Shown: positions 461 through 61,843 of the stretch, one piece after another | How positions within the stretch are numbered: position 1 is the first letter of the stretch | Layout: each line of letters starts with the position of its first letter | Assembly (NCBI GenBank): GCA_964016885.1 | Contig: OZ024740.1 | Coordinates: forward strand, 387,252,001-387,316,000 | Direction: 5' to 3' | DNA: 64,000 nucleotides | Source of the DNA: Eledone cirrhosa | Taxonomy: Eukaryota | Position numbers and translations under genes: made by a program | The notes under the pieces: model-generated | The model's input: the letters and a program-made list of their open reading frames with translations, nothing else | Databases searched by the model: none | Told to the model about the DNA's origin: nothing

Positions 461-1489
461 ACATGTTAATGTATGTATCCGCACAATTTGCTTCAACATC
501 GACTATATTTAAAAAGGTAACCTGTCCCCGCGAAGCTAGTTATTCATGTCAAGCCGTGTATCACATACAGTTCCCTCGCTGTTGTGTGAGGATAAACACT
601 ACTCTGCTCTCCCGCAGGAACTTCGCGCTTTGCTGTACTAGTGAAAACAGATTACCAACGTAAAATCTTTTGTCCACCGTTAACGATTTCATATTACACG
701 GAGTGATTCGGCGTTTTTAAACTGTAATTTTGCAGTTAGCGACTTTCATAAATGGAAGTAAAAAGAGTTTTAAGTATTTAAGAAATTTATACAATCAGCT
801 CAAATGGTGTTGCCTCTTGCCGTGGCAGTGTTTATCAACGTTGTGTTCATTATGTGACACATTTCTGGAATATCTACTCCGATCATATTTGTATATATCT
901 ATGCAAAGAGTGTCACAAACATAAATATATTTATTTATAAATATAAATGCGTACAAAAACATTCACAAAGTATTTTATTCGAGTTTTCTATCGGCGTAAA
1001 GAAGGCTTTAATGGAAAACTGCCAGTTGTCTCCAAGTGTATCATGGGTAATACTGACGTCACTACCAGCCAAACAAAAGATGGCGAAGAAAGTGTGCGAA
1101 TGAATTGCTATGCTGCCAATACCCGTTCTTCCTCGACTTCGTCTCAATGCCGCTCAGTTCGTCCGAAACAAGACGACGACAACGACGACGACAAAACGAC
1201 GAAGTACTGTCATTACAATCGGTGTTGTTTGCTCAGCTCCGGCGGCCAAGTTGTTACACCGACCAGTAACAACAGTCCCAGAGCCGTCCCTACTACTACT
1301 ACAACAACAACAACATCCTCAACGGCATTCGGGGCCCCTTCTTCACCGCCTTCAACTCGTCGTCGTCGGAGACGACTTTGCCTTGGCCGTGGCAGTTCTG
1401 ACCCTTCTCTTGGCTGTCATTCTGGAGAAAGTAAAAAAGAGCAGATCCGTACGACTGCGAATCAATGTTATCAAAAGAAGCGTTCTGCC

Positions 1490-1585
1490 ATGGTGAGAAG
1501 CCGGTCCTGTTGTTGTTGTCAGTGTGACATCGTCGGCTTCGCCATACAATGCGACCAATGTATCGAGATAGATCTTTGTTTACAG
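1490..1585 (+). CDS. TADA2B: Transcriptional adapter 2-beta, coding exon 1 (first half of ZZ zinc finger)
   Basis: gccATGg Kozak at 1490; MVRSRSCCCCQCDIVGFAIQCDQCIEIDLCLQ matches the Ada2 ZZ pattern; ends CAG|GCAAGT (GC donor, phase 0). The frame is open upstream to 947, so the start could be earlier. Confidence 0.88.
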
Positions 1586-2049
1586 GCAAGTACTAATACA
1601 CATTCACCATTTACTCTGAAAACCTGATCCATTGGGTTTTTTATTTTGCTATTGTATTTCATGTTTACATCTTGCAGCTTCATTTTCTATGTGCATGCCG
1701 TATTTACAAACCAGGCAATACATCACTTATGATTACTTATATGTACTACAACACACACTTGTATGAAGCTATGAAATTTCTTCCTATTGAATATGATTAG
1801 TTTTACTAGATTCATTTATTTATATTGCCTCGGATCGACACCATTTCCCATTTATCCCTTGCAAGCTATACGGTCACTGTTTATGTTATCAACTTAAACT
1901 CTCTAAAATATGTCTTCGGATATTGTGCATTCAGTCAAAAGAAATACTATTTTAATACATTGATGCGTCTGAAAAAATTGTACGATCTTCTAAATATATA
2001 TATAATTGCTGGCTATTTTATTTTCTATGATCATTCTTATTTATAATAT

Positions 2050-2450: not shown

Positions 2451-4674
2451 ATCATGTTGCTTTGATATTTTCAAAATTAAAATTATTAGCAGTATGATGA
2501 TCCATGGCTATCCATAAATAGAATGACCCAATCTTTCCTTCTCTCTCTTTCACACGCGCGCGCATACACTCACACACCCAAACACACTCACAAAACCACC
2601 TATGTGTTGGGAATTGAGAAACACACATACACGCACACAAGGCATTAATTCCACTAGGATGATCGGATGTTCTATAAAATCTCCAATCAGTCTATAAAGT
2701 TGCTATTTTATTGTTATATTCCTTCTTTCTCCAAAAGAGTTATTTATTTGTCGTTTCATTCCTATGGCATGTTCATTATTATACACATCCTTTTTACATT
2801 CTCTCTTTCTCTCTGTATGTATGTATATATATAACATTTATACATACATGCATACATACACACAAACCTTGGAAAATGCTCATCTTCACTACTATGATTT
2901 ATTCCCAAGACTACTTTCTCCTCCATTTCATTCAGTTAAGAACTATGTTCTTTTTGTTATATCTGATGGCTGCTGATTATCCTGTTCTATCTCTTGCTTG
3001 TAGCTAAATGTTTCGTTGGTAAAACATTAGTTACTGTTCTATTGCTTCTGGCTCGTTTATTCACTAGGCGTTTTTGTTTGTTGTTGGGTTTTTCTCTTCT
3101 TTCTATCCGTCTATGATTCACTCAACATGTCTCAATTCACTTTACTTCCCCATCGCCTCTACCTTATTGAGTCGTGTTGGGAGGGGAATCCTGAACTATA
3201 TATTTTTTACTCTCGTGCTGTATTTCGTCGATTAGTTTCCGTTTCATGGCAGGGAAGTTTTATGAATATGGTTATTTTTCTCTCTAATATTACATTGCCA
3301 ATATGGGGGTGTGTGAGTTCGCATAAAGCAACGCATTGGTTTTTATACTTTTCTTTTTTGATTCTAGTATTTGAACGAAAGCTAACCTGATACTCAATTT
3401 AGTGAGTAATGAGAATAGGAAAGCCTCTCTTCCAACCCCACCCCGTACACTACCTGATCTCTACTAACACTTAATACTCAGCGATAATTACTAGGGAACA
3501 GTATGGTGTCAGGTTCACTCTTTACAGTAGTTGAAATGAGGCGATCGTGCTTTATGACTACTAGAATAAATGTATACACAGTTGACTCATAGTTAACACT
3601 GCGTGATAGAATCTGACGTCGAGTGCATAAATAATACAAAGCGTTTGATCTGATGATCAGTGGTAGATAAAATATATATGAAATAGAACATGTTGGTGCG
3701 CTCTGGGGAAAAGGGAAGTCTAATTATTTTAAGCTTGCTCTTTACCGGAGGAAAATGAAGCGGTTCAGAAATGTTAGATTTTCTTTCCTTGATTCGTGTC
3801 AATGTTGGCCACCATTTACTTGTCTTCTCAACTTTTAGTACGAGATAAACTGGTTTGTAAATCTTACGAGTAAACCTAGAGTGCTCTGATCGCTTCTTTT
3901 ATTTACTATATCACTGGTTAGATTGTAGGCGGGGCTATGTTGGTAGTAATTATCAGTCACGCAGCTAAAATTAGATATGTTTGCTTTGTGTAAACTTGAA
4001 CTCTTATCACTTTTGTCTAACCTAGAATTGTATGCAAATATTAACTGTATGAGTGCACATGAGATCTGGATTTTTATTAGAAGCATTGTTAAAGCCCCTT
4101 CAGTTTTCTTAGCGTATTTCTTATCCTTCCCATTTGTTCTTGAATATAGATTCACTGTAACAGCTGGAGCAACAGATAATAGTCCAAGTTCTCCTTTGTC
4201 GAGACTGTAGGCTTCCGGTTTAATCTGCTATTTTTAAACAGCGTATCCTAGATACAGGAAATTTATCTAACAATATATATATATGTAGTTGAAATGTTTT
4301 TGTTATGAAACTTGCAAGTATTTAGTTTATGTTGTACAATAACAAATAACATGCATTTTATTAGTTTTTGTCGAGTCATATTTATTAGTTTTTGTAGTCA
4401 TAAAAGAATGAAGCATTGAGTAAAATAAACGATGGGGATTGTCACGGTTGGAATGTCTTTATTCATAGGTTTTCTTAATCAAGACTGACAACGTTAGTAG
4501 TAGCATTAAGCATAATAGGGGTGTGTATGAAAACTATATTATATATAATATAGTTTAACGTGAAGTTACTGTAGGTTTATCCAGGTGAACACTTGATGTT
4601 TAGATTCACGTCTGTAGCGAGGTATAGAGCTAAACAGTGTAAATATAATAATATAATATAACAAATCGTCCTTG

Positions 4675-12534: not shown

Positions 12535-13780
12535 GAATAATTTTGGTAAAAATAACTAGAGAATAAATTCCAAACCTGGAAGCAGGGACTAGAAAGAAAG
12601 GGTCTCAAAGTCAACATGACAAAGACTAAGGTCCTTGTAAGTAGACGAGAAAACAGAACCCAGATCCCCTCAGGGAAATGGCCTTGCTCAGTATGTAGGA
12701 AAGGTGTAGGTAGGAACTCCATTCTCTGCCCCAAATGCAAACAATGGGTACACAAATGATGTAGCGGGATCTCAGGAAGCTTAATTAAGAATGTAGGATT
12801 CACATGCAGCAGCTGTGCTGAAACAGCAAGCAGCAAACAGCCACAGGAAACAAGTACCACCAATCTCTGGGAGGGCCCTGTAGAAACAGTAGACAGCTTC
12901 TGCTACCTAGGTGACCGAATTAGCAACGGAGGTGGGTGTTCAGAAAGTAAAATAACTAGGGTAAGAACGGGATGGAAGAAGTTTAGGGAACTACTACCAC
13001 TGCTAGCTGCAAAAGGCTTCTCCCTCAGAATGAAAGGCAGACTGTATGATGCGTGTATCCGAACAGCGATGTTGCATGGTAGTGAGACCTGGGCGCTGAA
13101 GGTGGAAGACTTACGTAGATTAGAGAGAAACGAAGCCTGCATGCTCCGATGGATGTGTAACAGTAATATACGTGAACGACAAAGCATAAATGAATTGAGA
13201 GAGAGACTGAGCATAAGAGGAATCAAATGCTGTGTGCAGGAGAGGCGGTTGCGCTGGTATGGACATGTGATGCGTATGAAGGATGACAGCTGCATAAAAA
13301 GGTGCAGAGCACTAGAAGTTGATGGAAACCGCGGAGTGGGGAGACCCAAGATGACCTGGGATGAGGTGATAAAAGCCGACCTTACCCAACTACACCTCTC
13401 AAAGACAATGACACACGACCGTGACTTCTGGCGTCATGCAGTAATACAGAGTACCCGACCTCCCATGGGTACATGCTGAAGCATATAAACAATATGCCCC
13501 CACACCCCCCCACTGCAAGGTGGTCGTGGAGGTGCCACGGCAAAAAAGCACCCAGCCCACACTGTAAAGTGGACGTGTAGGCGCCACGAAAAAGCACCCA
13601 GCACTCACTGTAAATGAGGTTGGTGTTAGGAAGGGCATCCAGCTGTAGAAATCAAGCCAGATCAGTTCCTGTATGAGCAAGGCATGGTCAGCTGACCAGA
13701 CACTGCACACAACAGGACAACCCGTCTAACCCATGCTAGCGTGGAAGAACGGACGTAAAACGGTGATGATGATGATGATG
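12535..13780 (+). mobile_element. 5'-truncated RTE-clade LINE (RT C-terminal half, 3' UTR, (GAT)n tail)
   Basis: GLKVNMTKTKVL, FCYLGD, KGRLYDACIRTAMLHGSETW, RRLRWYGHVMRM, RGVGRPKMTW; one in-frame TGA near 12757; ends gatgatgatg. Confidence 0.95.
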
Positions 13781-34970: not shown

Positions 34971-35017
34971 GTTTATCTATGGCCGCAGCCTCTCTAATCA
35001 ATCACAGTATGGCTTGA
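34971..35017 (+). CDS. TADA2B: TADA2B candidate terminal exon (coding part, or purely 3' UTR)
   Basis: Strong acceptor ttttttcttgtag|; GLSMAAASLINHSMA* if entered in phase 1. Confidence 0.35.
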
Positions 35018-36119
35018 ATGATGACAGCCTCGTCAACTGAACTATTCCTCGTTACTGAGATTGTTTTATTGTTGTACCTCTGCTACAGAAAAGCTACCAT
35101 TGCTGACTGTGGAGTGTTTCATTTCACTTTTCTATGGAACTGTGTAAAGCAATGCCATTGGTGTGCTGCAGAGAAACAACAGCAAACGTTTCTGCTACAC
35201 TGCTCAACAACTGGAAGGAGGCAGTTGAAGGTGCATTGTAACAGGTCTGGTCAAGGCTAGCTCCATAATGACAACTGGGAGTGTTCATAGTCTTCTTGAC
35301 TGTATCTGCTTGAGGAAGAAGGGGAGGGAGTCCTTTCCCCTCCTCATCCTTCACACAACTGGATAGGCTGATACGACTGTTGTAATGGGTATTTTGCTTG
35401 ATCAAAGTCAGGCAGGACCATGGCTACTGTCACAGCAACTACCAGAATTACCGACAGTCTGCGATATCTGGTCTGTAATCGCAGATCAAGCCTGATTAAG
35501 CAAACCTATGATCAAAAGCATTCCAGCCTTGACTATTGTCCTTATTTCAGATATACTGTATCTAAAACTACATTATTTAATATGTCCTTCCTTTTTTTAA
35601 GACAGCAACATATAATTTAAAAGATGCTTGACTGTTATTTCTAACAGTTTGAGCAACCACTTAGAAGCTCCTTCTTTCATTGGTTCACTGGTATAAGATC
35701 CTAATTTCTTTTTCTTTTCTAAGTGCTAAAGTTAAACATCTTTATGATGGTGATTCGTTCATTCCATGTATTGATTTTGACAACTATCAGGCTCCTCAGA
35801 TCATTTCTACTAATAATAACTGAATGTAGGCTGAGGGGCCATATATATTAGAGAAATGTTGAAATGGAAGTATAAGCTGGTCACCCATACATTAAGTTTA
35901 GGTCACCACTGCTCAAGGGATGATTGGAGAGCTCTGATTTCCATACGATTAATGATTACTCATCTTAAAATTCCTTTAGACAACTTGTGATCCAAATTAA
36001 CTCAGGAGGCTGAAATACTTTAAGAACAGTCTCACTGGTGTGTGTTCCAAGTATTTCAAACTCAGTTGAGTGTTGGGATTCTGAGCACATTTTTGCCCTA
36101 CACTCAAAAATTTAGCTGT

Positions 36120-37560
36120 TCAGAGATTTGGTTTGTTAACTCCTACAAATAGATATGACTAATAAACAATCTTTTTTTCTCTAGCAATAACCAACCATAA
36201 TTTTATCCAATAAATACTCAGTAAAGAAGCAGATAAGTTGGTTTATACATCCACCTCTATGCTGCCGAGGTTGTTATTTTTTGAGGAAGTATATTAATTT
36301 GTCATACCTTTATAACTGTAGTAATCCCATCCCTTATCACTCCAGCTTTGTAATGAACTTAAATTTGGATCTAAGGTGTCAATTTACCATCTGAACCTCT
36401 TGCAAAGACTATCCAATCATTTGGCTGGGATGAAAACTTTATCCAGTGTTTGTTGTGTTATTTTCTCTAAAAAGAAGTTAGTTGGCTGAACAAGATACCA
36501 CCAGTTATTCAAGTATTGATTTATACTATAAATACAATCATAGAAACTTAAAAATTTTCTAGAACCCATAATCCTAAAAATATTATCTTTTGTATATTGA
36601 GCAATCAAATTATGTCAGGTTCATGTTACTCTAACTAGTCCTATTTTAATTTTTATTATTTAGAGGTTTCAATGATTCTGCTATATTCTTTGCAGTTTGC
36701 CAGAGTCGTGTCAAGAAGGTGAATTTGCAAAAGTATCTTTATTTAAAGTTCATCTTTTAAGACCGCCACATATATTTTATCTTCCAGGTCAACTTCATCT
36801 CTATCCATCTTATCAATAATTTCCTTAATTGTTGATATTGGTTCATATAAATATTTCACCAACACTTGATTGCTCAATGTTTTATCAAATTGAGGTAATC
36901 TTTTGTCATAGAGTCTTCAATATATGATTGAATCATATTCTCTGAACCAAGAGCTAAACCAAGGAGAGATCTTATATTAAATTTGCCATATCAACAAAAT
37001 GGTCAAACTCAAAGTTTTGTTTGACACAGGCGAACATATCAGCATTCCACACTCCTTTCCAGTTTCAGGCCATGTATCATTTAAAATCACTTTTAGAACA
37101 ATATGGTTAACTTCATCTGTAGTACTTACTGATGGCCAGCGTTGTCTTTTGTGATTCTCACAACAAATTGTAAGAACAAAGTTTTCTCAGGGTGTTGTAC
37201 TTCATCTATACAAACCGAGTAAAGAAAACAAATCATTGATAAAATTGTATGAGCTGGTGGGAAATCCATGGGATTTCCATATTTTAGGAGTTTCTAAACA
37301 AGCAAGAGTTCTTTTCTTAAATGTCTGAACAGTCTTGGAATGACTAACAGCTGACTTTCTCAGTCATATATGTAGAAAAGTTGTGATTTTCAACTTTTTG
37401 AGGATAGATGCAATCTAAAGTGGTGGGATTATGTTAAATATATTTGTACAGTCATTTCCTAGTGTGTGGATGTCTTGCTTTCCTTTGTCTAAGTATTCAA
37501 ACTCTTGCCAGGATATTTGTTCGGAAGCAATGTGTGAGAAAAGATTATTTAAAAACATTG
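36120..37560 (-). pseudogene. Endogenous viral element: decayed L (RdRp) gene of a non-segmented negative-strand RNA virus (Mononegavirales/Jingchuvirales-like)
   Basis: Hand translation across stops and frameshifts gives, in the expected order: LGNDCTNIFNIIPPL*IASIL; LFSLLGLYR*; HKRQRWPSV...ILNDTWPET; KQNFEFDHFVDMANLI*DLS; WFREYD...VLVKYL...IKEIIDKM...EDKIYVAVLKDEL*IK; RYFCKFTFLTRLWQTAKNIAES; NMNLT*F; HRGG; YLFVGVN. Edges uncertain (may span ~35700-37850). Confidence 0.85.
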
Positions 37561-39413
37561 TATCATCTTCATCATGATCATTTAACATCTGTTTTCCCTG
37601 CTAGCAACTATTTTTGTTTTTCTACTCAAATACTGAATGCCAATTAGATTCCCATAAAAACAAGGAGATAGGTGTTTTAGCTTCTTGATATATTTCAGTT
37701 GATCCCATAACCTTCTCAATTCGATAGAGCTTGCATTTACAATTATACAAAATTTGAATGGTCTAATTGAGGATGCAAGTATCTGGTACATTATTACTAA
37801 CTTGTGAATCAGTATTTCTTGTATATGCGGTTCTGGTTTTGTCCTGATAGATACACACATCCATATATACAAGCCCACACACCAAAATTACCAACTGAGA
37901 TGCCAGACAAATCTAAGATGAGCTACCTCTTCACTGACTTGGCAAATATCTTGTAGCTCATCTGCTAAAAATAGCAATTTAAGCTCCCTCAAATCACACC
38001 TTACTGTCTTAAAATAAGGAAGGATACATTGGATAATATAGTCCTAGATACACCATTCCTGGGGAAAATTTTTGGTAGTCTTAGCTGGAATGTCTTTGGC
38101 CATAAGTTTGCTCATTCAGTGAGAGCTGACTTATTGCTACACAACTATAAATGCTGACTGCTAGACTAAGGGGCCACTGCCATGACATCAAACAACTGGA
38201 AGTATTGTGACAGTCTGTTCTGTTTGGTGCTGGGCTGTCGTGCTCTCCTCTCCTTGTATGGTGCAGTCAGGGCTATACCACAACAACAACTGAACATGTT
38301 AACAATTAAGAGATTCAACTATTGTTCTCATACTTGCCTCTTTATCTCCCATTTTCCCCCTTGACTATATTTTTGTCATCATCCCAATTCTGTCTGCCTC
38401 TTTCTCTTCCTTTATTTGACTTTTAATTCTATTTTCCCTCTCTCTTGTACCATCCTTCTTTAATTTTCTTTCACTCCCCTTCTTTCCCTTCATTCTCTCT
38501 CTCTTCTACCTTCTCTTTCTCATAACAGTTACTGCTGTTGGTTGTGACTTTTAAACCTTACTGAGACACTGTGGAAATTTTGGATAAACCAATGTACATA
38601 AATTATTTACTTCAGTGAAGTTACCACTTGATGGGTGAAAGCCTGTTAGTCTGATATAGTGTATGTACCACACAATGAATGTTAGTGTATGTAAGCATTG
38701 ATGTACATTTAGGAGAGTGTGTAATATAGTTTTCATCTTTTCTTTTTCACATCACTCATTTATTGCTACTCACAAGCAATAACTTTATTTATTGACTTAA
38801 TTCTTTATAAAACTGCAAATTTATATCTGTTGCAAAAGCTGTTACTTTATAAGGCTTTCAATTAAAACCACAAGTTATTACAAAAAAAAATTCAATAAAA
38901 TAAAAATAACAACTACAACAACAAAAAATGCAAGGTCTTTTAATAACTATATCTGCGTGGCTTTTCATCCTTGTTTTTCTTTTGTTTGTTTATGTTTATA
39001 TATATATACTCCACTCTTTTATTGGTTTCAGTCATTAGACTGCAGTTATGCTGAGACAAAGTCTGGTATTTATTTTATTGATCTCCTTTTGTTGAACCAC
39101 TAAATTGCAGGATAATAAACAAGCGCAGACACAGACAGATGGACACATAAATTTGTATACACAACAGACTTGTCTGCCAAATTTCAATTACAAGTCATTA
39201 ATCAACCTGAGACCGTAGTAGAAGACACTTACCCAAAGTGCCATGCAGTGGGATGGAACATGAAACCCTGTAGTTGCAATGTGAACTCCTTAACTACACA
39301 GCCATTTAATATACATATGTATATATACAGTTGATAATTCTTTTTCTGAAATCTAAAAGCTGAGATATTTTCAAATTTTACAGATAATTAAACGATAATG
39401 ATAAAATGTATAT

Positions 39414-46055: not shown

Positions 46056-46570
46056 TTACCAATATTCCAAGTCTGAGTCTCCTTCATTTGCAAAGAAATC
46101 AGAATCTTCACTTGAGCTGTCATATGGAATTTGTCTTTCAAACAACAAACTAGTAGTATCGATGTAAAAAGAAGAAAATAGAACCAACATTCTGTGGAAC
46201 AAAAGTTCAATTAAAAGGTTCAGTAAGGATGTCTGAGGTAAGGAAAAGTGAGAAAGAAATCTCTGTAGAAGTTTTTTATCAAGAACTGTATTGATAAATT
46301 CTTGATAGATATCTCGATCATATATATCAGAAACGTTTTCATAGAAAGATCGTGCTTCCTGATTCAGTAAGGAAGCCATGTAGCAGATATTATTGCAGAA
46401 AAACTCTTGGAAGATGACTCTAACACACAATTGTTTTAGGGTAGCTGTAGTCTGACCAAACAACATGTTAATAGTTTGTGTAGAAATGGGCATCCAATGG
46501 ATAAATTCTGGAAAAAAGTCTTTCATGTGATCCCCTAGTTCTTTTACAATATCGTCAGTTACAAAATGAC
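46056..46570 (-). CDS. Ankyrin/SOCS-like protein last coding exon (BC-box-like motif, acidic tail)
   Basis: ttctag|GHFVTDD...TATLKQLCVRVIF...SLPQTSLLNLL...DSSSEDSDFFANEGDSDLEYW*. Confidence 0.88.
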
Positions 46571-47988
46571 CTAGAAATAGAAACAAAATGATATTAAAAG
46601 AAAGTTAACATAAACTTGTGAAGGTGCATGGCCTAGTGGTTAAGGTATTGCAATTATAATCATGTCATGGGTTTGATTCCTGAACTGGGTTGTGTGTTGT
46701 GTTCATAAGCAAAACACTTCTTTTCATGTTGCACCAGTATACTCAGGTGAAAATAGTAGCTGGGGTTTCAACTCTGTGATGGACTGGTGTCCTGTCCAGT
46801 GGGGAGTCTTATACTCTCAGTCATTTAACACCAAGGAAACTGAGATAAGCACCAGCCTAATGAGCTTCTGGGCTTGCAACAGATCTTAGACTTTTTTTAG
46901 AACATAAACTATAACATATTTATATGAGAAACAAAACAAAAAATGAAACAAATAGCAGTTATAGACTTTTTTTCTTCAGTGATTTCATCTTTGACCAAAT
47001 AGTTTGTAACCAAACATATTTCAAAATTAGTTACTCTAATACTTTTTCATCAGCACATTACTTTGCCATACTAAGACAACTCTGGATTAACCATTAAGCA
47101 AAATAAAATGCTTTGTGCTTCTAAAGTTTTTAATCTGACTGCTCTAGGGCAAAAGAGTCTCTAACTTCTAATGATAACAAGTCCTATAACCTTATGGATT
47201 GTAGGAAGGAGAACCTCCATAGTATCTCAAAGTAGTTATCATAGAAGAATCTGTTCTCTAAATTATATTCACAGGGAAACTTAACTTAATACTTTAAACC
47301 AATGAAACTATTCCCATTTTTACACAGCTGTTGTAAATTATAGCAATGAGTTGTTTCTATTTATAGCTTGAGGCACTATGCCATTTAAGAGTTAAATGTA
47401 GTCATTGGTGATAGTATGTAAACTGCCAAACATTGACTATCCATGCTTTCAGCTAAGGTACAATTTTATCATAGATTGACCCAGATTTCCCTTTGAGAAA
47501 CAAATCATCATCATCATCGTTTAACGTCCATCTTCCACACTTGCATGGGTTTATCTAGTGATACAGTTGTTGACTATTGCATTAAGGTTATGATAAGACA
47601 TTTGTAGAGAATAGCAGGTTAGGCCTGCACAACAAACATCCCATGCTGGTACCTTCTCTCTACAGTTTACGATAGTGAACTATTGACTACAAAAAAAAAA
47701 AAAATACTAAAGCAGAAGTTAGCTTTGTGGACCCATGATAAGATTCATATTCATTATGGGGTATTTTTTCAGGCAATGTTTTACAGCTGGATGCCGTTCC
47801 TGGTGCCAACTCTTTTAATCACCTCTTATGACATACAGAGAGACGATGAATCTATTCTAGGAAAATAGGTCTTAAATGATGATGATGATGATGATACACA
47901 CAGTAGTACTATTGACAAATTTTCAAGCTATAAACTATGTTTAATTTTTTTATTATTATTTCTAGACAACAAAAAAGAAACAACTTAC

Positions 47989-52283: not shown

Positions 52284-53924
52284 TGCTTTAATCCAGTCTT
52301 CAAATAAATTGTTCTTATGAGCTTTCTTCTTTGTGGCCTCATCTTCATGAGTAGCAGGTTTGCAGATAGGTCTCAACCTTTTACAGTTGAAGTTCCTAAA
52401 TGTAATTATAAATTCTAGTCTAAGAGTTTCTTCTCTCACATCATCATCATCATTGTTTAACGTCTATCTTCCACGCTAGCATGGGTTTAGACATCTCATC
52501 TATATGAGATTTATGAGAGAAGCAACATCAATCATCATCTCTCTCCTTAAATTATGTTCTCTCTGTCTTGCACTTTCCCCTTCTCAGAAATCCCACGCAT
52601 TTTAATGGCTTTATTGCCTTGCTTAAAGTAAGTATATAAAAAAAAAAAAACGTTTGTAATGGGCAGTGTGATTTTGTGATAGTTCATAGTATCTTCAAAT
52701 TTGGTGAATAATAACTAATCTTGTGTATTAACTTGTTTGGGGCAGATATGGAGTCTTCAATAAATTTGTTTTTTTTCAAAAGGAGCAGTACCCATACCTT
52801 TTTTCAGGGCTTCCAAGACTGGCAGGAGGGAGGGAAGAAGTATCTTCAAACTGCATTCTAGCAACAGTGTGAACTCTGCTAAAAACACCCTTGGACAAGT
52901 GTTAGTTTTAAGTTAGACCAGAGATTAAGTCTACCACCTAAGTAGGTCATGGTGGAATTTCAACTTTGAAGGCAAGAAGCCATAACACATATTGCAAGGT
53001 TGATTCTTCCAGCCCACCACTTTAGATTGGTACTTTATTTATAAACCTCACAAAGATAAAAGCCAAAGTTCACCCCAGTAGTATTTGCTTGGTATAAACA
53101 TTTCTGTGCATTATACAAATACTGATATTTGTATAAATTAAAGAGCTGCTTATTGGATAAAATGCTTCTTCATGGTAATCACTTTGGCTCTTTATGGTCT
53201 GAGTCCCAATCCTGTTGAGGTCAACTTTGTCTTTCATGCTTTCAAGGTCAATAAATAAAGTATCAGTCTAGTACTGGGATTGATTCTTCTTCTATATCTC
53301 TCTCATTCCCTCTCTTTATCTGGAAGACATCAGCAGTTGGACAGGGATGAGCTCAGCCAGGTTTTTAAAAATGCCCAAGATACACAGTATATCTCTGCAG
53401 TGCCCATTTGGTATCACCAGTAATTAAGAGATCTTGGTATGACAGATGTTTAACCTTTAGCATTCACATTACTCTATATATACTATTATATTTTCATGTT
53501 AAAGGATTTACCTCACATAATATCGAATCTATGAGATTTTGAAAGTATTTATTTTGAGAACAATACCTTAACATCAGTTTGAGCGACCAGTTACAGCCAG
53601 TTTCAACAGAAAGAGGTACAGAATTCTGGACGGTTTTGGCTGGTTTGAACATTAAAGGGTTAAACCAAAGGTTTTGGATTTAATTTATGTTATTATATTA
53701 TTGATGTTGATTATCAATTTTTTTAAATAAGGAACTAAATTATTGATACTTTTATAGAAATGTGACTTTGTCTTTAAAATATATTTATACCTTTATTAAT
53801 AATCTTTATCTAACCAACTAACAAATTTAGGAAAATGGAACTAATAAATAGAATAGAAAGGAAGGTAGACTAGCAAACAAAATTAAATTAAAGTAAAAAC
53901 CAAAAGATTTAAAGTATTTCTTAC

Positions 53925-54232
53925 ATCAATATCACTCTGATTGAGAAAAAAGTGAAAAAAATCTTTTTTCACTCCTTCAATGGAGACATTATCTTCTAAA
54001 GTGTTATCACTTGAAGTTGGTGAGAGATCATCAATTTGTCTGTAGTCTGATTCACAGATTGAAATATCCAACAGACACAATAATGGTGAATTATGTCTTT
54101 GGTCAATAGCATTGATGTTGCCCTCATTTTCATATAGCAGTTTGGCCATTTCAATGTCAAAGCCACGGATTGCTAAAGTGTGCAGTGGAGTCTGGTGGTC
54201 TTCATCCTTAATGTTGGGTTCACCACCAGTTG
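53925..54232 (-). CDS. Ankyrin/SOCS-like protein exon (ankyrin repeats)
   Basis: tcacag|TGGEPNIKDEDHQTPLHTLAIRGFDIEMAKLLYENEGNINAIDQRHNSPLLCL...QSDID|gtaaga; TPLH and N..D....SPL motifs. Confidence 0.92.
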
Positions 54233-55654
54233 CTGTGAAAGAAATACAATGAAACTGTAATTTAATGATGATGTAATGGCTAATACCTGCACAGGTTTCA
54301 CCAGCCTCATATGAGGCTTCTGTGTGTTTAATGACAGGGGCCACAATCTTGTCATGTAACCCTTCTTTCGGTGACAGGAGGTGGGATTTAAACTCAGAAG
54401 GTACAAACCTAGAACAAATACAACAAAGCATCCCATCTGATGCTCTAATAATTCTGCTAGTTCATCATCCTTGTCTGAAAGAATGAAAGAGAAAGTTGAC
54501 CTTGGCAGGATTTGAACTCAGAGAGCAGAGAGCCAAAACAAATACCACAAGCCATTTAATCTGATGCCTTGACAACCCTGCTAATTCACTGGCTTGTATT
54601 TTACAATTTTCAAATGACTATTAACCTAATTAATCATGCTATTAAGTTGTTTAACAGCATCATTTGATCAACTTCCAGTCAATCACCTTTAAATGGAATG
54701 AACTCAGAACCTTTATTTCTAATGTATGGTTTTTAATACTCTGAATCCATCAGTCAGTGTCCTGTTAAAGTAAAAGGATACCTTAACCCTTTTGATAACA
54801 AACTATTTGAAACAACCCATGATTCTACAATATTAAGCTGTTTCTTAGAAAATGTAGAGATCTCTGGTGCAGAAAATAACTGTAAATACAGTTGACTGCT
54901 TTAAATAACAGCTTTGAAAATCAGGTAAAATACCTCTATAGACAAAAAAAAATGACCAGCAACTGCTACATAAAACCAAACTCTGTACCTCTCAAATTCC
55001 AGCAGAGTGCTCTTAACCATTGAGTTAAATGGCCCATGACAATAACTTCTGTTTAAATAAAAAGCTATACAAACAGCTATACGAAAAGCTATACGAACAG
55101 CATTTCAAAGGTAAACAAATAAAACATTGAGTAGATTGAAATTCTTAGAAAATGTAGTTACAGTTATTTTCTGTGTTTGAGATTTCTACATTTCCAAAGG
55201 ATTTCAATCTAGTCACAGCTCCGATAGTTTACCTTCAAAATTAAGCTGTTTATTTCATCTAAAAAATGTCCATTCTAATTCTATATTAGAACGTTTGTTA
55301 AGTTATGTCCCAAATACGAGCTATATAATGAGAAAGTTAGTTATATTATTATATCCCTCCACATTCTTGATTATTTAAAAAATGTTTTGAAAATCACAGA
55401 CAATAATTTTATTGGAAATATGGCAGTAAAAGAGTTAAGATAAGTGGAGATTTAACTGACTGACATTTAATGCAGGGTCAGTTTTGTAGAAAATTAAGAT
55501 TATAGTAATAACTCATCTGAAAAATATATATATATATGCACTATAAGTGACATAGCTGGAGTGTGAGCCACCCGGGGAAACCCTTCAGTTTGCTATCCCC
55601 AGGCCCCAACAAAAAATACATATTGCTCTTAATATATACATATAACTCTTAAAG

Positions 55655-56734: not shown

Positions 56735-57910
56735 ATAATAATAATAATAATGAAATTATTGTGTACAGTGCTCAGGTGCACTACAACTCATCAAAGGTGC
56801 ATGTATAGTACATAGAATAATATACAAATGTCAGGGAAGTGAATAGTGTAGGAGTCATGATATACATGTGTGCGTGTGTATGGAGGGGGAATATTAGGTG
56901 TAGTGTTGGCGAATCTCAGGAAGCATGGAGGTTTTAAAGGATGCAGTGTCTCGACTGCTAATAACTGATGCAGGTAGTTTGTTCCATGCTTCAGCAACTC
57001 TGAGCGTGAAAAAATGTTTCCGAAAGTCATGGGAACTGTGCTGATTTCTGACTTTGTGGTCATGCTCATGTGTGTTAGACACATGGAAATCAAAAAGGTA
57101 CTCAGGGTTGTTGTTGGCAAGATGGTTAATAATTTTGTGGGTGTTTACCAAGTCAGTTGCCAGGCGTCGGAGCTTCAATGTATCCATGCCCAGGGAAGCA
57201 AGGCGTTCAGAGTATGGTAGATGCTTGACGGAGGGTTTCACTTGGTTGCACGTCTCTGAACAGTTTCCAGGCGGTCAATGTTCTGAGCAAGATAGGGGTT
57301 CCAGACTGGTGATGCAAATTCTAAGTGTGGCCGCACCATAGCTATATACAGCTTTAAATAGATAGCTGGAGAGCTGCTGACAAAGGTCTTGCTGAGTGAT
57401 GCCAAGATACACTCGGCCTTTTTGAGAATTTTAGAGATGTGCTTTGTCCAACACAAATCGAAGCTGACCGTAATGCCCAGGTCACGTTCACAAGAAGACT
57501 TCTTGATATTAGTGTTGTGGACGCTGGGTTTTTACTCCAAAAATGCATGGTGGTACACATGTCCACAGCCAACTTGAGTTGCCAGTCTGTGAACCGTTGC
57601 TGCATTGTGTCCAGGTCTGATTGCAGGAAAGATCTATAGTGTACAGGATCTGTCCTTTTTATCTCAAGGTACAGCTTGATGTCATCTGCATATTTGAGTA
57701 CTGTGGCATTCTTTAAGTTGGCATCTATGTCATTAATATATGCCACAAACAAAAGGGGTCAAGAACCCTGTGGTATACCAGATGACATCTTATATGGTAA
57801 GGAATGCTGTCCTAGAACCATGACTACCTCTCTTCGACTCAGAATGAAGGACTTCAACCAGTTAAAAAGATCATTCTGACACCCATTGCAGAGAGTTTTG
57901 CCATAAGTCT
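56735..57910 (-). mobile_element. 5'-truncated CR1-type LINE (RT), frameshifted
   Basis: SGIPQGS, KYADDIKLY, MVRPHLEFASPVWNP, VQRRATK, FFTLRVAEAWNKLP; (ATT)n tail. Confidence 0.93.
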
Positions 57911-60045: not shown

Positions 60046-61314
60046 ACTCTATATATCCTATTTTTCACGGTAAAGGCTTTATTTCACATAATTATCTCAC
60101 ATATTGAATCTATGAGATTTTGATATTATTTATTTTGAGAACAATACCTTAACGTTGGTACGATATACAGGACTAGTTATAGCCTCGTTGAACAGAAAGA
60201 GGTGAGAGAATTCTGGCTGGATATGGCCGGTTAAAGAGTTAAGCTGTGATCATGTCACAGCTATCTCAATAACTAGTGAGAATGCCAGACAGCTGTTTCT
60301 GGATTTTTATCATTCATTGGTGACATTTACTCACTATATATATACTGTCAATGATCAAAAACTTCTGGAACATTCTTCATGTATACAAAGGATGTGTATT
60401 GTTTTTCATGTGCCAAGTGACAGGTTAAAATGTATTCAACAAGAGAGTGTGAACTTTAAATTTGACTATATGTATTGTTTGGAGCTATATATATAGTTAT
60501 ATGAGGGTATCCTTTGAGTATCTTAACATGGGTTGAGCCCATTTCACAAATACTCCACAGTCATAAGAAGAATGAATTTTACCAAACTGAATTTCTCTTG
60601 ACACATACTACATGAAGTAACATCATCATCATCATCATCATTTAACATGTTTTCTATTCTGGTAATGTGTATCATCATGCATTTGCATAAATCTATAAAC
60701 CTCTTTTGAACAGCATTTGAAATATTAAGAAACAAATATACTGGTAAACTTAAAGAATAGATGATCTAAACAAAAGAAATGCTTGGAAAGAGTGTTTCTG
60801 ACTCAATATTTATAAATAGTTTTTAAAAAAGATAGAGTGAATAGAAATTCTATAAAAATGTAAAAGTAGGACATTACCCACACCAGCACACCCATTACAC
60901 TCAATATCAAATATTTTTGTCAAGTGATTCAGGCAAACAACTCGTCTGAGCACTCAGTAAAGTGTGGGAACATATCTAATTGAGATGTAGGCTCTCCTTC
61001 CCCACCGGGCCTATCTGATGACCTTTCTACCCCTTGTTAGCATGAAAAATAGATATTAAATGATTCTTCACCTGGACTTCCTCTTTCCCCAGAATTCCTC
61101 TCACTATTTCCCATGTATGCATCAAATGACTAGCTTATAACAATATACCATATAAGCTCATGCTAGCGTCCACCTTCTTTTTACTGTGCTCAAATCTATT
61201 CATTAGGCACCTATTGGCATCTATCATACAGCCCATTTCCATAAAATATAAAAAATGTTAAATATTGCATAATATAATTTAAATCAGACATGTCAAACTG
61301 AGGGTCCCCTGAGA

Positions 61315-61752
61315 GCCACATGGGTCACATGTGTTGTCTAAGGACAACATGGGTCACATGTGTTGTCTGAGGGCCACATGGGTTACATGTGTTGTCTGAG
61401 GGCCACATATGTGTTGTCTGAGGGCCACATGGGTCACATATGTGTTGTCTGAGGACCACATGGGTCACATGTGTTGTCTGAGGACCACATGGGTCACATA
61501 TGTGTTGTCTGAGGGCCACATGGGTCACATATGTGTTGTCTGAGGACCACATGGGTCACGTGTTGTCTGAAGGCCACATAGGTCACATATGTGTTGTCTG
61601 AGGGCCACATGGGTCACATATGTGTTGTCTGAGGACCACATAGGTCACGTGTTGTCTGAGGACCACATAGGTCACATGTGTTGTCTGAGGGCCACATGGG
61701 TCACATATGTGTTGTCTGAGGGCCACATGGGTCACGTGTTGTCTGAGGACCA
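61315..61752. repeat. ~28-32 bp minisatellite (ccacatgggtcaca(ta)tgtgttgtctgagg)n, about 15 units
   Basis: Direct tandem repeats visible. Confidence 0.95.
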
Positions 61753-61843
61753 CACACAACAACTAATTGAACACATTACAACACATTTTTTTAAATTTTA
61801 TATACAAAGATAAAACATGCTCGCGCTGTAAAAACCTTTGTGC

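Follow-up and report, generated by a model that had tools for sequence, protein, structure and literature searches.

The 64,000-base stretch of DNA analysed here (the window; C1:387,252,001-387,316,000, on a chromosome-scale contig of a 3.0-Gb assembly) almost certainly carries an endogenous viral element (EVE) derived from the polymerase (L) gene of a negative-strand RNA virus. What survives is a relic of part of L rather than a polymerase. Taking all steps together, we consider it likely that the locus holds an L fragment of a Berhavirus-like nyamivirus, which would have been copied from mRNA by a LINE, fixed, and left to decay without function since before two host organisms split. The original prediction had described a decayed L gene of a negative-strand virus on the minus strand. 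The mononegaviral L homology stood, over 37498-36664, and the part comprising catalytic motifs A to C did not. All 12 peptides listed in support of it do lie on the minus strand at about the predicted positions, across three frames.

We searched the main frame (37558-36746, minus strand, X at stops) with phmmer against 1,835,955,588 protein representatives (index-free). The sole match at E<=0.001 was P0121 (E 5.8e-8, 29% identity, aa 212-480), the L protein encoded by Beihai rhabdo-like virus 3 (hereafter BhRLV3; Berhavirus sipunculi, Nyamiviridae; YP_009666292.1), and chuviral L was absent from the matches in this search of 1.84e9 proteins. The first 737 aa of BhRLV3 L, as a genome-wide query, led back to the locus at E 3.9e-9. 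A profile from 17 nyamivirus-like L proteins gave iE 4.8e-18 at 37498-36752, with collinear pieces in the remaining two frames (37058-36954 and 36744-36673). Frameshift-aware profile alignment scored 133.1 at the locus, above every control (maximum 20.4 in 100 shuffles and 22.5 in 120 natural pieces of the window; 15.7 on the opposite strand). Related L proteins reached E<=0.004 at the locus in 14 of 39 cases, all nyamivirus-like or adjoining that clade. A match to PF00946 had also been expected and was found indirectly, via P0121, on which PF00946 scores 371.8 bits: single-frame Pfam scans gave no family in any of six frames, and a stricter genome-wide PF00946 search returned seven matches, the locus not among them. 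A PDB sequence search with one frame gave no match below E 1.4. Fossils of this kind escape routine Pfam screening, and a family-level profile detects them.

The core of the fragment runs from the N-terminal RdRp region through the KExK...RxFxKxT..R.WQT..KNIA block and ends before motif A (Table 1). Its frame segments are 37498-37049, 37049-36957, 36955-36749 and 36747-36670, with 7 stops in 276 codons and three frameshifts (near 37049, 36956 and 36748). The upstream extension is weaker, with an anchored gain of 7.7 against a maximum of 4.5 in 100 shuffles; scored alone, it was matched by 5/100 shuffles (frameshift-aware) and 2-3/100 (decay-aware). L-derived sequence therefore stops near 36664, and its beginning is probably to be placed upstream of the core, near 37760. 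LLGLYR, put forward as a conserved motif, is a chance look-alike; the sequence that aligns with the family motif GLWKxxG[HF]P is KIWKSHGFP. Its GFP ending is common to Macroli virus, Girado virus 3 and the unnamed P0123, and is missing in 14 of the 17 nyamivirus-like rows.

Table 1. Features of the window (positions 1-64,000) and other L fossils of the genome (contig:position)
Feature	Position	Strand	Remarks
Core of fossil L fragment	36664..37498	-	~aa 212-515 of BhRLV3 L
Weaker upstream extension of L fragment	37499..37762	-	~aa 117-211; CFYGNLIGI 37662-37636 vs DFFGDLVVL
KIWKSHGFP	37285-37259	-	counterpart of family motif GLWKxxG[HF]P
A-rich tract, candidate decayed poly(A) tail	36661-36642	-	15 A in 20, at end of L homology
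46-bp 3' end of high-copy repeat, (GAT)n tail	37607-37562	-	inside L-like stretch, same orientation; in organism B too
Single-copy DNA, treated as host flank	35680..36640		no detectable L signal; holds the three weak motifs first proposed as A to C
Old ~200-bp dispersed repeat	35470..35680		70-84% identical to many genomic copies
Second copy of ~200-bp repeat family	37945..38150		inverted relative to first, 70% identical
Ankyrin-repeat exon	53886-54461	-	likely part of a host gene
Open frame	46056-46604	-	7 kb beyond ankyrin exon; no Pfam match
Calponin-homology match, weak	3838-4227	-	E 0.058; possible host exon
226-aa open frame	947-1627	+	no Pfam match; possible host exon
LINE remnant	56894-57758	-	RT match PF00078 at 57357-57758
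LINE remnant	12760-13479	+	frame recurs at many genomic loci
Tandem array	61309-61754		29-31-base units, 15 copies
Rhabdovirus-like L fossil	C3:130160003-130164890		~aa 25-1740, few stops
Rhabdovirus-like L pieces, scrambled	C3:37502164-37502850
Rhabdovirus-like L pieces, scrambled	C27:16994000-16997800		both orientations; DNA ~75% identical to C3:130 Mb element
Divergent L fossil	C23:16220970-16223000		PF00946 matches in three pieces; very long branch, unplaced
Second berhavirus-like L fossil	C14:6237475-6237942		~aa 446-614; stops and deletions

The original prediction extended the element to 36120 and read NMNLT*F, HRGG and FVGVN (36627-36135) as motifs A to C. L homology stops at ~aa 515, near 36664, and these three matches are at chance level in four scorings: local scoring was equalled by 38/60 shuffles, scoring anchored to motif C by 42/100 and decay-aware codon scoring by 85/100, and a full-length profile on both strands did not rise above chance. 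By the same four scorings, catalytic motifs A, B and C (GDNQ) were undetected downstream of the core. This absence is informative because family conservation is higher over aa 514-740 (42%) than over the detected core (33%), and because the same decay-aware test detected a second fossil, on C14, for profile positions 540-620 (53.7 vs a shuffle maximum of 20.9; 0/100). Motif B in the nyamivirus-like family reads EGxRQKGW, without GG.EG, and HRGG therefore cannot be its counterpart. SDKGWD (36341-36324) and RGGCINQ (36258-36238) lie at roughly the family spacing by eye, and were rejected with the B-C block at chance (32 and 44/100 shuffles). With motifs A to C undetectable and the frame broken, the element cannot encode a working polymerase, and in all likelihood it has no protein function.

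To place the virus, we collected references with BhRLV3 L as query (39 matches among 8000 scored candidates), and the set therefore leans towards BhRLV3; it includes three of the seven ICTV Berhavirus species and no named Crustavirus, Socyvirus, Tapwovirus, artovirus or chuvirus. In a maximum-likelihood tree built from the single main frame together with 36 references (204 of 612 columns filled), the fragment fell within a 17-row nyamivirus clade (support 99/98) and, inside it, in a five-row clade with BhRLV3, Macroli virus, Girado virus 3 and P0123 (93/89). BhRLV3 as its sister received 83/72, the fragment being a long branch with 34% of columns filled. A mixture-model quick tree (25 of 37 rows) returned the five-row clade at SH 91 and the 17-row clade at SH 90, with no starred set holding the fragment, and a further quick tree gave the berhavirus grouping at SH 89, unstarred. 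Macroli virus and Girado virus 3 are Berhavirus species per ICTV, according to the accessible part of the 2024 update (PMC12282299). AU tests, on groupings chosen after the tree was seen, rejected sister relationships at p 0.0099 for the single bornavirus, 5.6e-6 for three animal rhabdoviruses, 0.029 for Nyavirus and 0.0061 for the formi/orino clade. Frameshift-aware scores per reference were 110.5 for BhRLV3, 51.5-91.5 for other named nyamiviruses, 23.5 for borna and 15.5-25 for 12 sampled rows of the rhabdovirus set. Rhabdoviral identity was rejected on that AU result and on searches at the locus: none of the best 25 rows from tblastn with 120 rhabdovirus-type L proteins lay there, and a 40-sequence rhabdovirus profile gave no signal.

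We infer family and genus from the tree on 204 columns: the source virus very probably belonged to Nyamiviridae and probably to the Berhavirus clade. The expected mononegaviral affinity was thus borne out and refined, in a tree that holds no chuviruses. A source in another Monjiviricetes lineage (chuvirus-, arto- or lispivirus-like, or an unnamed family beside Nyamiviridae) would fit a best identity of only 29% and the three unnamed rows P0137, P0138 and P0140, which branch immediately beyond the nyamivirus clade and reach 48-53.5 in frameshift-aware alignment. It would also fit a reference set without chuviruses, for which a search from the divergent C23 fossil yielded 0 of 174 candidates under a 2000-aa length limit that excludes longer L proteins. 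We nevertheless consider such a source improbable, given that the search of 1.84e9 protein representatives found a berhavirus alone, that the GFP ending is common to berhaviruses, and that clade support is high.

The host is likely a cephalopod, as had been predicted. Hemocyanin domain PF14830 has 39 matches in the genome, and one functional unit scored 658.6 and 650 bits on the single-unit chains 4yd9_C and 1js8_A, against at most 459.5 on other single units; we take these two entries to be squid and octopus hemocyanins, and the host is therefore placed among cephalopods. The hemocyanin copies themselves comprise three in tandem at C1:173.74-173.91 Mb, an inverted pair at C26:21.93-22.02 Mb and two divergent units at C27:61-67 kb.

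The stretch is present in five of the eight sequencing runs listed, none of them an RNA data set, and our comparison uses four (X1, X2, X5 and X6). Contigs of X1, X2 and X5 span the element and its lower flank. X1 and X2 (organism A) show no differences from the stretch and are possibly the source of the assembly itself. In X5 (organism B, a separate study), one 3050-base contig over 35000-37606 carries 177 substitutions in 2608 positions (6.8%) and 99 gap letters; a second contig over 37876-38300 differs at 27/425 positions (6.4%), and the listed pieces leave 37607-37875 unspanned. The organism B evidence for the element is this one contig of one run, the coverage of RAD-seq run X6 missing the unique part. 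The ancient integration that had been proposed is thus matched by an orthologous locus, with flank, in a second organism. Because organism B's locus carries both the insertion and the repeat tail within it, both predate the A-B split. Vertical inheritance and a junction to host DNA, by which an EVE is recognised, were both found.

These data also bear on contamination. Berhaviruses have been recorded in sipunculids, echinoderms and flatworms but not in this host group, as might be expected if the sequence came from a parasite, prey, a live virus or misassembly. However, the locus carries stops and frameshifts on a chromosome-scale contig, in two runs contigs lead from it into host flank with an even, single-copy depth, and the orthologue with flank comes from a separate organism in a separate study. 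Chance resemblance faces a score six times the control maximum. We regard this whole set of explanations as vanishingly unlikely.

In X5, divergence was 105/1627 (6.5%) in the part with the element and 72/981 (7.3%) in the flank (Fisher p 0.38), a coarse comparison, since ~680 bases of the 1627-base part are not L-derived and the individual differences available cover 40 of 280 rows. Indels between the organisms inside the core measure 2, 5, 2, 3 and 2 bases and include frame-breaking ones. Under a neutral model, 7 stops are expected at ~0.2 substitutions/site (95% range ~0.06-0.6), and divergence since the A-B split is ~0.035 substitutions/site per lineage. The insertion is therefore roughly several times older than the split, an estimate biased young by frame choice through alignment. 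The element appears to have decayed neutrally since before the host split. Its persistence in two species could instead reflect retention as a source of small RNAs (piRNA-type) against related viruses, a use reported for a mosquito EVE in the accessible part of one study (PMC7522710). We think this very unlikely: divergence is close to the flank rate, the element stands alone with no dense EVE cluster in the window, and decay of ~0.2 substitutions/site would leave little match to a living virus.

The fragment is single-copy, with further copies found neither by DNA nor by its own frame genome-wide (DNA searches skip common words and score best candidates only); beyond short repeats, 35000-38500 has no other DNA match in the genome. 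It is a single, broken, internal L piece in mRNA sense. The A-rich tract at the end of the homology suggests a LINE-made retrocopy. Its A-richness is equalled by 64 of 4264 comparable window spans, in AT-rich DNA and for a tract seen before testing, and it falls within L instead of marking the natural gene end. The best target-site duplication candidate was reached by 115/1000 random stretches, for an old element with a fuzzy 5' end. Nuclear replication of nyamiviruses has been shown for Nyamanini virus (PMC10010136), and in LINE-made borna- and filovirus fossils from mononegaviral mRNA often just the poly(A) remains, according to the accessible text of PMC2912400. Under the explanation we favor, a berhavirus-like nyamivirus would have infected host germ cells or early embryos, with its mRNA present in the germ-cell nucleus. 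At a nick in a chromosome, a host LINE reverse transcriptase could then have used an A-ended piece of L transcript as template for target-primed reverse transcription from the A-rich 3' end, giving a 5'-truncated copy that would later have decayed and acquired a short retroelement insertion.

The integration route is the weakest step of this explanation, and we weigh a LINE evenly against all other routes. Recombination with cDNA of an LTR retrotransposon (Ty3/Gypsy), or viral cDNA being trapped at a double-strand break, is a somewhat less likely but real contender. Either would suit a fragment whose ends are internal to L on both sides and whose target-site duplication is not significant, and another L fossil, at C3:130.16 Mb, lies ~500 bases from a Ty3/Gypsy-type pol ORF. 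By contrast, 29-38.8 kb contains no ORF of at least 100 aa besides a 101-aa frame that belongs to the element itself, in its upstream part, 35400-38200 has no Pfam match, the flanks to 35000 and 38500 are single-copy save short repeats, and the start of the A tract coincides with the end of homology, all of which speak against these two routes.

Two other repeats were considered as agents of integration and rejected. The 46-bp (GAT)n repeat end is apparently a retroelement tail and likely a later, 5'-truncated insertion; it sits 5' of the core, inside the upstream L match, and is therefore in the wrong place to be the priming end of a chimeric retrocopy. An inverted 170-bp pair flanking the element could resemble the ends of a transposon carrying it. 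The family is dispersed, however, with an inverted partner within 1.5 kb at two of 14 loci (L029 and L033), and the second ~200-bp copy is likely an independent insertion and the pairing likely a coincidence. Elsewhere in the window, the minus strand likely also carries an ankyrin/SOCS-box host gene, which would end ~8 kb upstream of the fossil, the open frame beyond the ankyrin exon bearing what we take to be a SOCS-box-like motif.

At least five other L fossils occur in the genome (Table 1), a floor set by PF00946 and protein searches with a stricter first look. Over 437 aa, the rhabdovirus-like fossil at C3:130.16 Mb shares ~50% identity with sigma- and vesiculoviruses, and it looks much younger than the berhavirus-like element at C1. 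It terminates in internal duplications of 212 and 78 bases, 99% identical to earlier parts, and the neighboring pol ORF (901 aa; RT, RNase H and integrase) is on the opposite strand. The C23 fossil is chuvirus-like only by one motif. Across 85 columns the C14 fossil shares 41% identity with BhRLV3, and it clusters with the C1 element (SH 81, in a quick tree with few shared columns). Since the two have no blastn DNA match and a permissive alignment was marginal (1/300 shuffles), they are likely separate insertions. A genome-wide PF06407 search for nucleoprotein fossils gave no match, its positive controls being silent too. Of the 10-13 kb negative-sense genome that typifies the enveloped nyamiviruses, with gene order N, P, G, L, the locus preserves a piece of L.

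Compared with BhRLV3 L, the C1 element is collinear over ~aa 117-515 and has WKSHG, RWPS, TW.E, FD.F.D...L..D.. and R.WQT..KNIA in common with it. However, it is 29% identical, broken and less than a quarter of L; no motif A-C, capping region or other viral gene was detected in the window; and the BhRLV3 host is a sipunculid. Nyamivirus-like L EVEs have been described, in the accessible parts of the respective papers, from zebrafish (PMC2912400), the isopod Armadillidium vulgare (PMC4231630) and Lepidoptera (PMC12548735). These are likewise germline L fragments from the same virus family, but as described there they are Midway/Nyamanini-related or assigned at family level and occur in fish and arthropods, whereas the C1 element groups with Berhavirus and lies in a mollusc. 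LINE-1-made endogenous bornavirus-like elements, going by the accessible text of PMC2912400, resemble it as single gene pieces of a nuclear-replicating mononegavirus, at low copy and with an A-rich 3' remnant. They differ in belonging to another family (a borna sister was rejected here), and the C1 element ends inside the gene and has no open frame, transcription start signal or significant target-site duplication.

Berhavirus hosts are given as sipunculids, echinoderms and flatworms (PMC10010136, PMC12282299, in their accessible parts). The 2021 ICTV profile names no mollusc among nyamivirus hosts (PMC10010136), and the accessible part of the 2024 update, which adds flatworms to Berhavirus, mentions no octopus, squid or cephalopod (PMC12282299). 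Nor are Mononegavirales mentioned in the accessible part of bioRxiv 10.1101/2021.04.21.440720. Rhabdoviruses have been reported from cephalopod transcriptomes (Rey-Campos et al. 2023, as cited in the accessible part of PMC11097642), and negative-strand viruses in cephalopods are therefore not new as such. No cephalopod nyamivirus or cephalopod mononegaviral EVE appeared in the literature searched, which took in few subscription papers and not supplementary EVE catalogues. As far as that search extends, the C1 EVE is new for its host group and virus genus. It is ordinary in kind and involves no new mechanism.

We give even weight, for and against, to a broader reading, in which an undescribed cephalopod-associated branch of Berhavirus infected this lineage over a long period, entered the germline at least twice (C1 and C14:6.237 Mb, which group together), and left the first molluscan record of Nyamiviridae. 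Metagenomic sequences are confounded by prey and parasites and cannot show host infection, which a germline fossil does directly, as a record that such a virus reached cells of the host lineage. The orthologue gives a calibration point for Nyamiviridae once both hosts are named and dated. If the broader reading is true, a minimum age would be tied to the host split and, together with the rhabdovirus-like and unplaced L fossils, cephalopod genomes would hold a so far unread archive covering at least three lineages of negative-strand RNA viruses.
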